Both the position numbers and the translations under genes were made by a program. A stretch of 21,580 nt of DNA, from the NCBI GenBank assembly GCA_018400815.1, contig JAGYLS010000025.1:1-21580 (forward strand), in the 5' to 3' direction. Below are positions 13,282 to 21,210 of the stretch, in pieces. Each line of letters opens with the position of its first letter. Position 1 is the stretch's first letter. The stretch is from Candidatus Oleincola secundus (lineage in GTDB: Bacteria > Atribacterota > Phoenicimicrobiia > Phoenicimicrobiales > Stramentimicrobiaceae). The notes below the pieces were generated by a model. The model saw only the letters and a list, made by a program, of their open reading frames with translations, did no database searches and was not told where the DNA came from.

Positions 13282-13992
13282 CTATATAATGATTTTCATT
13301 CCGTCATATGCCAAAACTGCCTCAGGATATATTTCTGTAAAAGTATCTTCTTTGCTTAAGGTATTCTTCCCGATATGAGTAAAAATTATATTTTCTATTC
13401 CGAATTTTTTACACCAGTTAATTTGTGTAGGTATCCGGGTATGCCCATAGAAATTTTCTCCCTTTCTTCTCACCAGGTTTGTGTTAATGGTTGAACCATC
13501 ACCTATATAATAATCAGTACCAGGTAAAATATTCTCTTTAGCAATAATATCAACCAAATCGGGATTATAGACCACTACTTTATCATCAGGAAGTTGAATT
13601 TTAAAACCAACAGCAGGACAACGAACTGAATGCATTACTCGATAAGGCAAAATCTGAACAGGTCCAAGTGGAAACCATTGAAAGGGATAGAAAATATGAG
13701 GATTAACAGGGAAAAACTTACCGTATTCTAATGTTTCTATAGTTAAATAAACGGGTGTAGCATTATTTGCTTCCTCTTTAGTCCAGATATAATGATCAGG
13801 ATGAGCATGAGTAATAAGTATTGCATCTGGTTTCAATATACTCAAATCATAGGAATGAATAGTTCCATAATCAATCACTAAACGAAAAGAATAAGGATGC
13901 AATATTTGTAAAAGCAGAGAAGAATGATAATAATGATTCTCTGTCTTTTCTTCAATCTCTGCCCTGGTTCCCAGGAAAGTTAGTCTGGCCAT
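13282..13992 (-). CDS. MBL-fold metallo-hydrolase
   Basis: LTFLGT start, IDYG, HxHxDH motif (ITHAHPDH), downstream H (VMHS), D (NPD) and FTHIG. Confidence 0.85.
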   Translation of the reverse strand: MARLTFLGTRAEIEEKTENHYYHSSLLLQILHPYSFRLVIDYGTIHSYDLSILKPDAILITHAHPDHYIWTKEEANNATPVYLTIETLEYGKFFPVNPHIFYPFQWFPLGPVQILPYRVMHSVRCPAVGFKIQLPDDKVVVYNPDLVDIIAKENILPGTDYYIGDGSTINTNLVRRKGENFYGHTRIPTQINWCKKFGIENIIFTHIGKNTLSKEDTFTEIYPEAVLAYDGMKIII

Positions 13993-14018
13993 TAGGCATT
14001 CTCCTTATCCGGGTTTAT

Positions 14019-14456
14019 TTATGATAAATTAATTTTCAAAACTTCCTGGTAATATTTTAGAATTAAGGAATAAGCTGTTTTGGGGTCATTTGTATCTTTT
14101 GTTAATTTTTCCATGGGACATTGACCATTTTTGCTACGATTTTGAATATAATCAACATATTTTTCATATTGGTAAAATACTGAATATTGGTCCAACACTT
14201 CTTTTGCCTGTTGGCTAAGAATCTCTGTATAAATTTGCTTTACTTTATAAGCTACAGCCAATAGTGCTGCAGCTTTTCCAATCACCTTATCAGCAATCAC
14301 CGCTCCTTGCATCATATCTCGATTATCCCGAATCATTTCCATTAACGGGATAATTCCCTTTTTATGAGAAGTTTTTATTATTTTCCCATCCATCATTAAA
14401 ACAAAAGTGTATCTGTTTTTCTCTAAAATATCTTTCGCTCTTTCAAGATTGTTCAT
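14019..14456 (-). CDS. DUF1893 (TM1506-like) protein
   Basis: KGIIPL, IADKVIGKAAALL and YIQNRSKNGQCPMEK motifs; 145 aa. Confidence 0.8.
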   Translation of the reverse strand: MNNLERAKDILEKNRYTFVLMMDGKIIKTSHKKGIIPLMEMIRDNRDMMQGAVIADKVIGKAAALLAVAYKVKQIYTEILSQQAKEVLDQYSVFYQYEKYVDYIQNRSKNGQCPMEKLTKDTNDPKTAYSLILKYYQEVLKINLS

Positions 14457-14622: not shown

Positions 14623-15981
14623 TTAAACTTTTGGTAAATCATGCAAAGCCTGTTCGATTTTATCCTGAGAATATTCATGATCTTTTAGTTTACCGTCAAA
14701 ATAAGCCTGGTAAGCAGCCATATCAACATGACCATGCCCGCTCAAGGCAAGGAGAATAGTTTTTGCTTCACCTGATTCTCGGCATTTAATCGCTTCATCA
14801 ATAGTAGCACGAATAGCATGATCAGCCTCAGGTGCACTAATAATTCCCTCACTTCTGGCAAAATCCACACCAGCCTGGAAAGTACCTAATTGTTGTTCTG
14901 CCCGTGCTTCCACCAAACCTAAGTTCAACAAATGACAGATAATCGGCGCCATGCCATGATAGCGTAATCCACCGGCATGAACCGGGGGTGGAATAAATCC
15001 ATGGCCCAGTGTATACATTTTCATTAAAGGAGTCATGCCTGCTTCATCACCAAAATCATACCGATAAGGACCCCTGGTTAGAGTGGGGCAACTTGCTGGT
15101 TCAACATTGATAATTCTTAAGTCAGGGTATGTACCATCAATTTTATCTTTTATGAAAGGCAAGAACATGCCGGCAAAATTTGAGCCACCTCCTACACAAC
15201 CAATTATGATATCGGGATACTCGTTAATCTTTTCTAATGTTTTTTTAGTCTCCTGACCGATAACTGTTTGGTGTAATAAAACATGATTAAGTACACTACC
15301 CAGTGAGTAATGGGTATCTTCCCTGCTTACCGCCTCTTCCACTGCCTCGCTAATTGCTAATCCCAAACTACCTGGGCAATCAGGGTCTCTTGACAGGATT
15401 GCTCTACCCGCTTTTGTTTGTTCAGAGGGACTGGGTATGCAATCTGCACCCCAGACCTGCATCATGACTCTTCGATAAGGCTTTTGATTATAGCTTATTT
15501 TGACCATATAAACCTTGACTTCAATATCAAAGCAAGCGCCGGCAAAAGCCAGTGCACTGCCCCATTGACCGGCACCGGTCTCAGTGCTAATACGGTTAAT
15601 TCCTTCTTTTTTGTTATAATAAGCCTGGGCAACTGCAGTATTAATTTTATGACTTCCAGGCGGGCTGCTGCCTTCGTATTTATAATAAATTTTAGCAGGT
15701 GTTTTGAGTGCTTTTTCTAATCTTCTAGCCCGAAAAAGTGTTGTCGGCCTCCAGAGGCGATAAATACTTCTTACTTCATCCGGGATTTCAATATATCTCT
15801 CTGTACTTACTTCCTGTTTTATAAGCTCCATCGGGAATAAAGGCGCCAAATCTTCAGGCATGAGCGGTTTTTTTGTACCCGGATGTAATGATGGAGGCAA
15901 TGGTTCGGGCAAATCTGCCTGTATATTATACCAATATTGAGGTATCTCTTTTTCATCTAATATAAATTTGACTTGTTCCAT
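14623..15981 (-). CDS. trpB2: Tryptophan synthase beta chain type 2 (TrpB2), stand-alone
   Basis: [25 protein letters not shown] lysine motif [39 protein letters not shown]; 452 aa. No trpA adjacent. Confidence 0.92.
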
Positions 15982-16040: not shown

Positions 16041-16109
16041 TTATTTAGTTTCACAAATGTATATACCCCCTGGCGGGGGCCAACGCTTTTCTCTGATTAC
16101 CTCATACAA
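16041..16109 (-). CDS. Candidate 22-aa upstream/leader peptide MYEVIREKRWPPPGGIYICETK
   Basis: AAAGGAGGGGAT (close to a full anti-SD complement) 6 nt before TTG at 16109; TAA at 16041-16043. Lies between the second T-box terminator and trpB2. Confidence 0.4.
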   Translation of the reverse strand: MYEVIREKRWPPPGGIYICETK

Positions 16110-16183: not shown

Positions 16184-16310
16184 AAAATAAAAAAAGACTT
16201 TTATCCCATATCCTATTTAAGGATTAAAGGGACGAAAAGTCTTTCGTGGTGCCACCCTTTTTCAAATTGTCTCTAATTAAGATTTATGTAAAGATTAAGA
16301 GACAATCGAC
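16184..16310 (-). ncRNA. Second, partial T-box module (stem III, antiterminator, terminator; no Stem I)
   Basis: Stem ATTGTCTCT/AGAGACAAT. T-box AAGGG-TGGCACC-ACGAAAG pairing with TTTTCGT-CCCTT (motif at 16245-16259). Terminator AGACTTTT..GTCCC / GGGAT-AAAAGTCT followed by a T tract. Confidence 0.85.
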
Positions 16311-16336
16311 TCTGTTAGGCTCGGATTAAGTGGGAC

Positions 16337-16633
16337 AAAACAAAAAACCTTTCACCAAGAGGCGAAAGGCTTTATTTTTCGTGTTGCCACTCTCGTTGAA
16401 ACAGTCAGATTACTTATAAAATGCCTGTTTCCACTTATTAAGGTACGGGCAATATTGATACCGATACCCTTTCCCCGTTCACGGAGGGAAACACCGTCAG
16501 AACCTACTTGAAATCTCTATTTCTTTCAGCCTGAAGCTTGTGGGTCCATTTAGTACATCAATGAGGCTGCTTCTCATCGGCAACAGCTTTCTGTACTCAT
16601 TAGCTTAAATACTTATTCTCCCACGCATTGCTT
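16337..16633 (-). ncRNA. T-box riboswitch, tryptophan specifier (UGG)
   Basis: Stem I GTGGG...CCCAC with AGTA loop-E, AG bulge (ACAGAAAG), apical GATGAGA and specifier AAA-TGG-A (16546-16548). Stem II with GAA/AGTA S-turn. Stem III GAAACAG/CTGTTTC. T-box GAGAG-TGGCAAC-ACG (16380-16394). Terminator GCCTTTCGCC-TCTT-GGTGAAAGGT plus T tract. Confidence 0.9.
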
Positions 16634-16713
16634 TTATTATATTATTTTTAACATTTTACCATGAATGTCAAGAAAACTGAAAAATAAATTTAATTCAATC
16701 CGGAACTTTCTTT

Positions 16714-16851: not shown

Positions 16852-19800
16852 TTGGTTAATGCTAAGAAAAAAAGGAAACTAATCTATTGGCTAGTGGTGC
16901 CCGTTATTACCCTATTGATTCTTTCGGTAATATTTTATACTTATATCAATACTGAAAGTTTCCGTGAAAATATTAAATCAATAATAGTAACAAAACTGGA
17001 AAATAGTCTTGGAAACACTATAGAAATTGGAGAAATAGAGTCCATATCTTTTCAATCATTAGATATAAATAATATTATACTTTTTGAAAATAGTTCTTCC
17101 GAAGAAAACAATATCTTATTTCAGGCAGAAAAGGCAAAAGCCAGGTTCGGTTTATTATTTCCTATTTTCCAATGGAACCGTTGGCGGCTAAATATCCATG
17201 ATATTACTTTTTACGATGCTTCTGCCACTTTGACTAGAGAATTAAATGGAGAATTTGATTTTATTAAGAAACTACATCTTGATCCAGAAAATTTTCAGGA
17301 AAATATTATCATCAATCGTATCTATTTTCAAAATAGTAACCTAATTTATCATGACAAATTGGTGTACAACTATGATCAGGATTATCTAACCACGCGAGCA
17401 AGAGGTATTAACGGTTATCTTGATCTAACTCGATTACCCAAGATTATGTTTGATTTTCAGGGTACCCAGGAAAAAGATAATGCTCTATTAGCTCTGCAGG
17501 GAACACTATTGATAAACCAGCCTGAATTCTCTTTGGATTTCCACCTGGAGAATGCGGATATTAACCATTTTCAATATTATCTTGAGGTAGCTGAACTATT
17601 CAAGGTAAGCCAGGGCAAATTTAATATTGATTTCAATTTGAGTCATTCTTCTGATTCAGCTCCTTCGGAGATTGACTGGAAAGGGGAAGCAACCTTTCAG
17701 CAAGCTGATTTAAATCCACAATTTTTAAAAGAAATTCCTTTCCGCCAAGTCAGCGGTTCTATGCAGTTTGTAAATCCAGAAATAACTATTTCCGAGATGA
17801 CAGGGCTTTATGGTGATAAAAATGTCCAATTAAGGGGTTCTGTTCTCACTGCCCCAGAAGTTTATTTTGATTTTGACATAAAAGGTGATGAAATAAAAGC
17901 ATCTTATTTAAAAGATGATATTTCTTTATTCTTACCGGATTATAATGATTTTTCTCTGGAGGGGGAAATCGCCTTTAACGGAAATGTCAAAGGGCAACCT
18001 GAAAGCTTTCAAATTGAGGGAAAAGCATTTTCTTCTGAAATTATTTTTGAGAATATTCCATTTCTAGAAACAGATTGCTCCTTTTTGTTGCGTCAAAATG
18101 AACTAATCATTGAATCTCTGGAAACACATGAATTAGAATCTTCTCTATCGGCTAATGGCAAAATTGACTGGTCTGAAGGTGTTCCCTTTTACCAGTTCTC
18201 CTTACAAACAGAAAATCTTTCTCTACAGCATTCCTTATTCAAACAGCTAACTTTTCTAGAAGGATCTTCAGGCACTATAGATAGTCATTTACAAATAGAA
18301 AGTCAAAAGCAAGACAGCTCTATTGTTAATATTGAGGGGCCATTTAGTGTTAAGTCTATAGAAATAGAGGGTTTATCATTGCTTAATCCATTACAGGGCA
18401 ATATAACATCAACTTTGGATTTTTCTGATAAAATATTATCTGTTCAACAATGTGAACTGGAATCCGGCCAGAACCAGGGCACAATAAAGGGAGAAATTAA
18501 TTTTAACGAACTTGTTCAATTCAGAATGGATTTTGGATTTCAAATACCCGAACTAACTGAGCTAGCCAATTCCATGGGTTTAGAAATACAGCCTGCAGGA
18601 AAAGCAAATATTGAGGGGACTTTTTATGGTAATTCAAAAAAACCCGAAATAAAAGCAGGGTTTAACCTACGAGAGCTCTCCATCCAGGATAATCTGTTGG
18701 GCGAACTGACCGGGGAATTGATTGTTCAACAAAACATCATTTCGTTAGAAACAGTTGAATTAATAAATCAGGATACAAAATTAACCGGAAATGGAAAAAT
18801 TATTTTACAGGAAACCAGCTCTCCGGAAATAGATTTTTCCTATCAGCTCCATACTATTGATGTTCATCCATTTATTCAAACAATTACTGATGATATACAA
18901 TTATCCGGCTTGACAAATGGTAGTGGCCAGATCAAAGGTATCTGGCCAAGGCTTGCTATTGAGGGAAATTTTCAATTAGAACAAATTACTTTCGAAGACT
19001 ATTTATTAGGCCAGGGGCAATTTGGTTTCCACCTACAACCGGAACAGGAATTGCTGCCTGAAAATGAAGAAAGTAATTCTACAGAATTGTTCAGTTGGTT
19101 AGGCCATTCCTATTCCTTTGAGCTGGACAACTTTAACCTAGAAAATGAAAATATGAAAATAAATGCAGAAGGCCAATCCAAAATTGGAGAAGACTATCCA
19201 TTTTCTTTAGAAATAGAGTTTGTTCATAAAGCACTAAGCAAGATGATTGATTATTTTTATCCCGGTGATGAGTATTTCAAGATATTTCTACCATCAGAAA
19301 TAACAGGAAAAGTAGATTTGCAAGGGGATATATCCGAACAAAACATTATCTTATCAGCCATGCTTACATCTCAACAACAAGAAAATAATCCCCCTTCTCA
19401 GCTAAAATCAATGATTACTATAAATGATGACAGATGGCTGCTTTCAGATTTTAGCTTAATCCAGACTGAAGGCCAATTTAATGCAAAAGGAACCCTGAGT
19501 GCCACCCAAGCTCTTGATATTGAATTCCAGGCTGATCGATTAGATATGAATGCGCTGATGAACCTGGCTCAGATTGATGAAGAAATACAGGGAATTATGG
19601 ATATCGAAGGTTTTTTTAGCGGTACCATTGAACAACCGCAAGTTTCTATGACTGCACAGATTAAAAAGGGATATTTCCGTGAATTTCAATTTGAAGAACT
19701 CCTGGGTAATTTCCACTGGAATAGCCAAAAAAACGAAATAGAGATAAGAGAATTAGATATTGCCCTGGAAGATGATAATCACATCCAGGCGAAGGGCAAT

Positions 19801-21210
19801 CTACCATTAGATGTATTTATGCTCAGAGAAGAAAGGGAAATCGAGTCAGGCGTTTCAGATATCGTTTATCAGGAAATCCCGTTAGATTTTCAAATTAACA
19901 TGGAGAAAGCCGACCTGAATTTATTAAGACTTTTCTGGAAGGAAGCTTTTTCTGAAATTATGGGAAACATTGACCTTGAACTATATTTAACCGGCACAAC
20001 TGAAAATCCGTTAATGAACGGAACAATCGATATTAACCAGGGTAAAATTGCTATGAATAATCTTCCTCTTCAAATGGAAGAAGTCAATAGCAGAATAGAA
20101 ATATCCAATAATCAGGTCAATATTCCTAATATTCCTTTTATGGCTTATGAAAACAGTTTCAACCTATCTGGTCAATTTGAGATGGTTCATCTTGTACCTG
20201 AAAATATTTTTCTAACTATACAAAATAATGAGGAAAAAATTATTTACCAGAATATATTAGAAACCAAGGCTGATTTTTGGGCAGAAATTAAAGGATCATT
20301 GCTTGAACCATATATTGACGGTAAATTAGTTCTCTCTGAAGGTAGCCTGAATCTTCAGAATTTGCTGCAATTATATGAAGAAAGTAATGTATCGTCATCT
20401 TATAACACTACTACATATGATCGTTCAAAAAGTACCCTTGATTTGAATATTGAAATTGCTGACCCTTTTACCTTAAGACTACCTGATGCAGAAATTAATA
20501 TAACCGGCAATATTAATTTAAGTGGCTCTTTCGCTGAACCTGCCGTGAATGGTAACCTTAATCTAAAAAAAGGATACCTAATATATTTTGAAAAAAGATT
20601 TGTTATCTCAGAAGGACGTGTCAATATTAATGGTCTTACAATTAACGATATTGATATCAACGCTAAGGCTAATACTACTGTACAAGATGTTCAAATTGAG
20701 ATTAATGTTTCCGGAAACCTTGCCAATCCGCAAATATCATTATCTTCTCAGCCTACTTTAAGAGAAACAGAAATCATCTCTTTGCTAACCTTTAATAGAA
20801 ATATTCAAGGCCTGTCCGAAGGCGAAATAAATCAAATTCTATCTCAAGAAATGGTAGATATCGTTTTCCAAAGCTTACAGATTAACCTTTTCAGACGTAT
20901 GGAACGTGAACTGGCAGAAGGATTGGGATTTGAATTTATCAATCTTTCATATGATATCTCGGAAAGTTCAAGTAGCAATCTTTTTTTTCTAGAAGATATT
21001 AATCTTGGAGATTTAACTTTAGAGGTTGGCAAAAGTATCAGTGATGATGTCTTTGTCACCTATTCTACTCCTCTTGATTTCCAGGGTGAAACAAGTCTTG
21101 GTATCGACTATGAAATCTCATCTAATTTTACATTTAGCACTCAATTTGATACTTATTCTTTAAAAGAAGAAGATTATCGGTTCAAATTTGGATTAGAGTT
21201 TAGATTTTAA
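16852..21210 (+). CDS. tamB: Translocation and assembly module TamB / AsmA-like protein
   Basis: 1452 aa. N-terminal basic stretch plus TM anchor, repetitive beta-strand 'GxxxxP' segments, DUF490-like C-terminus ([35 protein letters not shown]), ending in FGLEFRF. Confidence 0.8.

Follow-up and report, generated by a model that had tools for sequence, protein, structure and literature searches.

How can a single tRNA-decoding platform serve two transcription terminators that follow it in series? The window considered here, by which we mean the whole stretch of 21,580 nt analysed (Candidatus Oleincola secundus, GCA_018400815.1, contig JAGYLS010000025.1, positions 1 to 21,580), carries on its minus strand, before trpB2, a leader that is a 'partially tandem' Trp T-box. 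One Stem I/II platform is followed by two stop/go modules, each made of a stem III, an antiterminator and a terminator. Lacking a Stem I, a second discriminator ought to be a poor binder of tRNA, and a maintained helix that re-connects it to the platform would offer an explanation that can be tested by mutation. The initial annotation of this locus had proposed such a helix: the 5' strand of a hairpin next to module 1, here called X, was to leave its near partner for a similar segment before the second stem III, and with the help of a nested 7-bp helix module 1 would be looped out, letting the same tRNA-binding platform act twice.

All features named below lie on the minus strand unless stated otherwise. 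The covariance model RF00230 was matched at full length (model positions 1-219) at 16637-16355 with 87.9 bits and an E-value of 1.4e-19, and this complete T-box leader (16355..16637) comprises Stem I, Stem II, the IIA/B pseudoknot, stem III-1, T-box 1 and the start of terminator 1. Upstream of it a consensus scan, the only evidence used for this feature, found a promoter-like site (TTGACA, 16 nt, AAAAAT; 10 of 12 matches) at 16644..16671. The codon aligned to the RF00230 specifier position is UGG (Trp, 16546..16548), and the specifier-loop codon is followed by a purine (UGG plus A, the A at 16545), as in the T-box class. The Stem IIA/B pseudoknot with its F-box (CCGUGAA) was placed at 16471..16496 by the RF00230 alignment, and its IIB pairing, of the loop UUUCCC with GGGGAA, can be read directly from the sequence. 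Module 1 continues with stem III-1 (GAAACAG...CUGUUUC, 16398..16431; RF00230 alignment and fold), T-box sequence 1 (AGAGUGGCAACACG, 16380..16393, with the bulge UGGC at 16389-16386; RF00230 alignment) and terminator 1, a terminator call of 13 pairs and a U tract at 16344..16373.

The second module (16228..16317) consists of linker 2, stem III-2 (16306-16299 with 16273-16266), T-box sequence 2 (16258-16245) and the start of terminator 2, with no Stem I, and is itself a partial RF00230 match (model positions 154-216, 27.0 bits, E 6.7e-4). Terminator 2 (16189..16244), assigned from fold and sequence, is a long interrupted stem with a U tract near 16190. Both terminators share sequence with the antiterminator T-box helix, as expected for T-box terminators, and the two T-box motifs are 135 nt apart. 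The gap between terminator 1 and stem III-2, only about 30 nt, is too short to hold a second Stem I; the leader has a single Stem I and two units of stem III, T-box and terminator. In the RF00230 alignment the T-box bulge reads UGGC in both modules; the two tRNA-Trp(CCA) genes of the genome both have a discriminator G, which fits this bulge. At Rfam gathering scores no match was obtained anywhere in the window, and the T-box became visible only at E-value thresholds: the gathering score of RF00230 is 93, and neither the window leader nor the second module reaches it, the former because of a 32-nt insert described below (the X hairpin). Relatives with the same architecture do exceed it (L062, 109.1 bits; L143, 104.1; L014, 94.1).

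The regulated gene, trpB2 (14623..15981), encodes a TrpB-like PLP enzyme (NF009057, 742.6 bits against a cut-off of 366; PALP domain). Between terminator 2 and trpB2 there is a leader ORF (16041..16109) with a TTG start after AGGAGG, a strong Shine-Dalgarno sequence, encoding ..EKRWPPPGG... It carries a GC hairpin, UGG-CCCCC..GGGGG, in which the UGG-CCC-CC codons form the 5' arm (W codon 16082-16080). The peptide (K/R/G/N)-W-(P/S)-P and the same hairpin recur in 14 of 14 trpB2 leaders of family f1 and in four of family f2, and are absent from every trpE and TAXI leader among the leaders compared. Judged by its sequence, this ORF looks like a third, ribosome-mediated Trp sensor. It is a separate element outside the swap, and trpB2 in the window would then be subject to three controls in a stack, namely the two gates that sense tRNA-Trp and a leader peptide with Trp-Pro-Pro. 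Downstream of trpB2 on the same strand (13282-14456) are a DUF1893 (TM1506) gene and a gene of the metallo-beta-lactamase fold. Divergently upstream (16852-21210, plus strand) lies the gene of a TamB/DUF748 protein of 1452 aa, consistent with the presence of an outer membrane.

The insert between the IIA/B pseudoknot and stem III-1 is a local hairpin of 11 bp with a 7-nt loop (16440..16470) that is part of the minimum-energy fold. Its 5' strand X (AGGGUAUCGG, 16461..16470), defined from sequence, fold and relatives, pairs with the 3' strand X'1 as AGGGUAU/GUACCUU (7 bp), a C.C mismatch (16463/16447) and GGUA/UGCC (4 bp). The words on which the initial annotation was built do lie on the minus strand where it had placed them, namely AGGGTATCGG at 16470-16461, CCGTACCT at 16448-16441 and CCGAGCCT at 16324-16317, together with TAAGTGG at 16437-16431 and CCACTTA at 16333-16327. 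The proposed pairing of X with its near partner CCGTACCT is real, and 45 of 46 related loci retain the hairpin, all 45 with the X core GUAUCGG, but the register differs from the one proposed: CCGTACCT falls inside X'1, the 3' strand of the minimum-energy hairpin. The far partner, X'2 (CCGAGCCU, 16317..16324), is a decayed second copy of the hairpin 3' strand and stands before stem III-2. Its position had been called equivalent to that of the near partner, and so it is, each 3' strand being followed, 4 nt on, by an AGUNG motif at the base of a stem III. In the window this places the 3' strands 9 nt from stem III-1 and, in the second module, 10 nt from stem III-2, and in relatives the distance from 3' strand to AGNGG is mostly 4-6 nt in both modules.

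Whether this second complement of X means anything can be judged from relatives. A DNA search gave matches in 33 of 41 related genomes and in 36 of 52 genomes over the whole order; among 46 loci read, 35 have two T-box motifs, 122-163 nt apart. A pattern of the X core plus two T-box motifs was found in 27 of 86 genomes of the phylum, all inside the order, against 0 of 86 for the reversed-pattern control. Applied to one genome per species, the same pattern returned at least 118 stretches, and 80 loci were fetched. Thirty-four of these, among the matches listed, are T-box leaders of a Bacillota type (L092-L171; Desulfotomaculia, Syntrophomonadia and kin), with records that include Desulfotomaculum, Pelotomaculum, Syntrophomonas zehnderi, Desulfofundulus, Desulfoscipio and Heliobacteriaceae. 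Some of the other fetched loci are titled Atribacterota and have leaders like those of the window's order; the remainder are high-GC chance hits. The Bacillota-type leaders are specific for Phe (specifier UUC, bulge UGGU) and, in the matches listed, have in common the inserted hairpin, both gates and a second complement of X. The T-box motifs are spaced 119-163 nt apart over 69 measured two-gate leaders of both phyla, the Bacillota-type ones being from the matches listed. In the window's order the leaders lie ahead of trpB2, trpE or the gene of a TAXI TRAP binding protein; the Bacillota-type leaders precede genes of a DAHP synthase with an N-terminal regulatory domain or of PaaK/phenylacetate-CoA ligase, named from partial products that score below cut-offs. 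Two-gate leaders with the hairpin thus stand before at least five gene types. The architecture, with its two alternative complements of X, is conserved in two phyla.

The genome of the window itself has 14 full T-box matches, with the X core in only two of them, both Trp leaders. The second of these two-gate Trp T-boxes (L031/L062, contig C24:28392-28786) again has one Stem I, scores 109.1 bits with an additional partial module of 35.9 bits, and lies upstream of a TAXI-family TRAP solute-binding protein gene. Here X:X'2 runs to the full 10 bp, or 15 bp with its extension. At a contig edge of the same genome (C199:1-300, L042) there is a T-box in which two GGTGGCACCGCG motifs stand 116 nt apart and GTATCGG is missing; it is a possible third partially tandem leader of a different type.

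In leaders outside the window's clade, the sequence just ahead of linker 2 and stem III-2 resembles the hairpin 3' strand (CCCGUACNCU), and we refer to it as X'2 throughout. Beyond T-box 1, X finds its best duplex partner at the X'2 site in 27 of 35 leaders. For a formal comparison we used 62 two-gate leaders of the two phyla, Atribacterota-type Trp and Bacillota-type Phe (the latter from the matches listed), and scored a 10-nt core. MAFFT misplaced X'2 in three of 24 rows, and X'2 was therefore anchored by its likeness to a consensus and not chosen by its pairing; rows mis-picked in this way (L110 and L154 in the set of both phyla, L060 in the Atribacterota-type set) count against the pairing. 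The initial annotation had called for its pairings to be tested for covariation in homologous leaders, and for X:X'2 the complementarity is kept above the permuted level. In the Atribacterota-type set (22 distinct rows) 187 of 220 X:X'2 cells are paired, against 179.4 (sd 1.8) when partners are permuted, and in the set of both phyla (45 distinct rows from 62 leaders) 378 of 450, against 349.7 (sd 3.8); none of 5000 permutations reached the observed value in either case. Over both phyla the true register pairs 476 of 560 cells, and slid registers pair 162-297. Two-sided changes occur at positions 1 (A-U 22, G-U 6, C-G 3, G-C 3), 3 (G-C 21, U-A 9, U-G 5, G-U 3, A-U 2, C-G 1) and 4, where the pair types are G-C 26, G-U 13 and A-U 4. 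Opposite C8 of X there is a pyrimidine in either helix, with C.C in 31 of 45 rows. Even the unedited MAFFT alignment, with its three misaligned rows, gave 92.4% paired cells for X:X'2 against 22-51% for slid registers, two pairs with two-sided changes and a covariation of 0.241 against 0.211 (7/500).

In relatives the complementarity is not confined to the core. Immediately upstream of X'2, 8 nt complement the distal arm and loop of the hairpin, and the contiguous run of this extension scores 97 in the Bacillota-type set against 64.4 (sd 6.1) permuted (0 of 5000) and 113 in the Atribacterota-type set against 100.5 (15 of 5000). With it the long-range helix reaches 15-19 bp at most, and the complementarity to the distal arm and loop could possibly serve as a toehold.

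These results bear on a rival explanation, according to which there is no swap at all: X'2 would be a slowly decaying relic of a duplication, or would be kept for some local role, X:X'1 would stay closed, and the second antiterminator would catch the 3' end of the Stem-I-bound or a free tRNA by tethered proximity. A relic would not be expected to track X through U-A, U-G, C-G, A-U and G-C pairs while the adjacent stem III-2 diverges freely. Nor would it follow the variable distal arm of its own hairpin, or persist in two phyla and in four or more operon types; and in family f2 X'2 pairs with X at position 3, where X'1 has a U.U mismatch. The count of independent events speaks on the other side. 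When a tree was built leaving out the X hairpin and X'2, the minimum numbers of changes of X at positions 1-4 were 8, 1, 6 and 3, and a test of independent contrasts had one or two well-supported contrasts per position (2-6 over all branches), mostly concordant, with p >= 0.5; the test is not significant, and it is underpowered. With so few independent contrasts the permutation results partly reflect shared ancestry, and because X'2 arose as a duplicate of X'1 it owes part of its resemblance to a complement of X to descent. As far as an alignment can tell, the covariation of X:X'2 is real in pattern and rests on few independent events.

Predicted folds of sub-transcripts favour the swap in most relatives. 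In unconstrained minimum-energy folds of the sub-transcript from X to stem III-2, X:X'2 forms in 27 of 35 leaders of the order, including 24 of 24 Atribacterota-type leaders outside the window's clade, for which the free fold is 4-15 kcal/mol better than one with X'2 blocked, and in 32 of the 34 Bacillota-type leaders listed. When about 175 nt of upstream leader were added, the swapped state was the minimum-energy fold in only 17 of 24, 0 of 11 (the window's clade) and 16 of 34, respectively. The flip is predicted 66-94 nt past T-box 1, ahead of the synthesis of T-box 2. An RNAalifold consensus of 33 Bacillota-type leaders has the long-range helix and not the local hairpin; on 24 Atribacterota-type rows RNAalifold chose the local hairpin (pair types G-C/A-U/G-U), as the explanation without a swap would have it. 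All these energy models leave out the pseudoknot, the tRNA and tertiary contacts. The latter RNAalifold run also paired T-box 1 with T-box 2 (alignment A2, columns 140-149 with 348-357), the two T-box sequences (GUGGCACCAC) being complementary to one another. This pairing is probably an artefact of the near-palindromic motif and possibly a misfold.

Within the window's own clade the case is weaker. The initial annotation had X pair with CCGAGCCU through 3+3 bp. The two segments are complementary, but a better register than that one is bulged, in which GGGU-(A bulge)-UCGG pairs all 8 nt with a duplex energy of -9.3 kcal/mol. Taken by itself a duplex this good is within chance for a G-rich strand of 10 nt (40 of 200 shuffles of the downstream region), and what supports it is conservation. 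The X'2 sequence is CCGRRCCU in all 11 clade trpB2 leaders, and in the bulged register 86 of 88 cells are paired (97.7%), with slid controls at 6-64%. Five of the pairs are invariant and two vary between U-A and U-G (purines opposite U5 and U7). Among these 11 leaders no compensatory change in X:X'2 was found, and a G2-to-U change of X in L010 and L011 is uncompensated. The extension to the distal arm has been lost in this clade. For the window, the swapped state in its best register lies 5.0 kcal/mol above the minimum-energy fold, with a pair probability of about 0.001; over the clade the gap ranges from 0 to 6.8 kcal/mol, and the swapped state is in the minimum-energy fold of only three of 11 leaders. 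As a separate candidate, pairing of CCGRRCCU with the 3' strand of Stem II (AGGUUC) was inspected by eye in an alignment and set aside; it amounts to 6 bp in five of 11 leaders and 3-5 bp elsewhere, and breaks Stem II.

Much of this is what one would expect were there no swap. The minimum-energy fold keeps the local hairpin in the window and in 8 of 11 clade leaders, and does so in 11 of 11 once upstream sequence is included, and the lack of compensatory change within the clade fits as well. Single-module derivatives exist too (L005, L012, L013, L021 and L049), so that one gate can suffice. In two of them, L021 and L049, T-box 1 is joined straight to a stem like terminator 2, as if the DNA between the T-boxes had been deleted, and in a further single-gate derivative, L030, X'2 is retained and everything from stem III-2 through terminator 2 is lost. 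On balance we consider it rather doubtful that X'2 is a mere relic or is kept only for a local role. The strand swap is supported as a principle of the family, with its maintained complement of X and its folds in relatives; for the window it lacks support in the form originally written, given the gap of 5.0 kcal/mol and the invariant clade. Since X'2 has decayed to a bulged 8 bp here, a swap in the window would have to be assisted by tRNA binding or by tertiary contacts.

The proposed nested helix joins two segments. UAAGUGG (16431..16437), in linker 1, contains the AGUGG motif that precedes stem III-1, and CCACUUA (16327..16333) lies between the modules. As had been claimed, the two form a perfect 7-bp helix nested inside the alternative pairing. 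Some perfect 7-bp helix arises within these 154 nt in 1031 of 2000 dinucleotide shuffles; one between precisely these two segments arises in 309 of 20000. This rarity is the first point for a model, that of the initial annotation, in which two cooperating helices, X:X'2 in 3+3 bp and UAAGUGG/CCACUUA, loop out module 1 at this locus. In addition, 8 of 11 clade leaders have some duplex between linker 1 and the inter-module region that is better than at least 94% of shuffles, and the complementarity is confined to the clade in which X'2 is weakened. The nested helix itself is not conserved: 59.7% of its cells pair in the clade, with 226 of 500 shuffles as good and slid registers at 35-54%, a U-to-C change in AAG(U/C)GG is compensated in none of the four clade leaders that have it, and a counterpart is missing in family f2 and in the Bacillota-type leaders listed. 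Adding the helix to the swapped state gave -53.8 and -51.2 kcal/mol against -62.5 for the minimum-energy fold, and the loss arises from competition of the nested helix with stem III-1 and with a pairing of T-box 1. The exact two-helix model thus sits 11.3 kcal/mol above the minimum-energy fold (-51.2 vs -62.5), and we regard it as improbable. The 7-bp helix is likely a product of chance and is most likely not part of the mechanism.

The competing pairing suggests another role for the same segment. CCACUU forms 6 bp with GAGUGG of T-box 1, and in so doing it could lengthen terminator 1, lock module 1 behind the polymerase that has gone past it and free the tRNA 3' end. This pairing is present in the minimum-energy fold of the window. 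Over the clade 78.6% of its cells are paired; the figure for the nested helix is 59.7%. The segment of L006 complements T-box 1 over 7 bp (0 of 300 shuffles as good), and in L003 this pairing beats the one with the linker. Yet it does no better than column shuffles (280 of 500), slid registers reach 64%, the pairing is poor in L009, L010, L011 and L047, and it is absent from family f2. We consider such a lock on module 1 unlikely, if somewhat less so than the two-helix model.

We now return to the swap through X:X'2. Once polymerase has passed terminator 1, X (16470-16461) would leave X'1 and pair with X'2 (16324-16317), and module 1 would be folded away as a loop. Stem III-2 and its antiterminator would thereby be joined to Stem I/II, with its bound tRNA, by the same helix and by a linker of equal length, and the same platform, likely with the same tRNA, would be tested again at terminator 2. 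Of the mechanisms considered this one has the best support, strong in relatives and weakened in the window's clade. We put the chances that a helix swap docks the second discriminator back onto the one decoding platform at about even, and we infer that the swap would occur during transcription and be needed for read-through at the second gate, so that one platform would act twice. In more general terms, the two-gate leaders may be relays driven by toehold-mediated strand displacement of a dedicated hairpin, with the platform passed from module 1 to module 2 and one tRNA interrogated twice, from Atribacterota (Trp) to Bacillota (Phe); here too we find the arguments for and against evenly poised. 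If the relay is real, the leak through the terminators would be squared and induction would not. The locus would then be a natural case of one sensor with two serial expression platforms connected by strand exchange, which bears on riboswitch kinetics and on the design of RNA switches with low leak.

The canonical transcriptional T-box (RF00230) is represented by the tyrS and glyQS types of B. subtilis. The window leader shares with it the Stem I specifier loop, the Stem II S-turn, the IIA/B pseudoknot, stem III, the UGGN bulge and the competing terminator. It departs from the canonical form in the 32-nt hairpin between pseudoknot and stem III, in a second stem III, antiterminator and terminator without a Stem I, and in a second complement of the hairpin 5' strand. 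Toehold-mediated strand displacement is a general principle in the co-transcriptional folding of riboswitches. As there, a strand made later complements a strand that is already paired, with extra complementarity to the loop in relatives; unlike the usual toehold switching of a single platform, the swap as modeled would exchange expression platforms on a fixed sensor.

Partially tandem T-boxes are listed as a variant in a 2020 review, where, in the part of its text considered here, their mode of action is given as unknown (PMC7583486). The window leader is like those described in that part, with one decoding domain followed by two discriminator/terminator units. The same part of the review (PMC7583486) offers no mechanism; here a specific alternative helix, X:X'2, was identified and compared among relatives. 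In the papers covered by a full-text literature search no description of such a swap was found. The partially tandem layout is already known, and what is proposed here in addition is the X:X'2 swap. Fully tandem T-boxes occur, for example, in trp operons and in thrS of Bacillota, according to the portion of the source considered (PMC12452182). As described there, they resemble the window leader in having serial terminators that must both be read through and in being enriched in tryptophan biosynthesis (PMC12452182). By the same partial account every one of their units carries a Stem I and two tRNAs are required (PMC12452182), whereas the window leader has one decoding platform for both of its gates.
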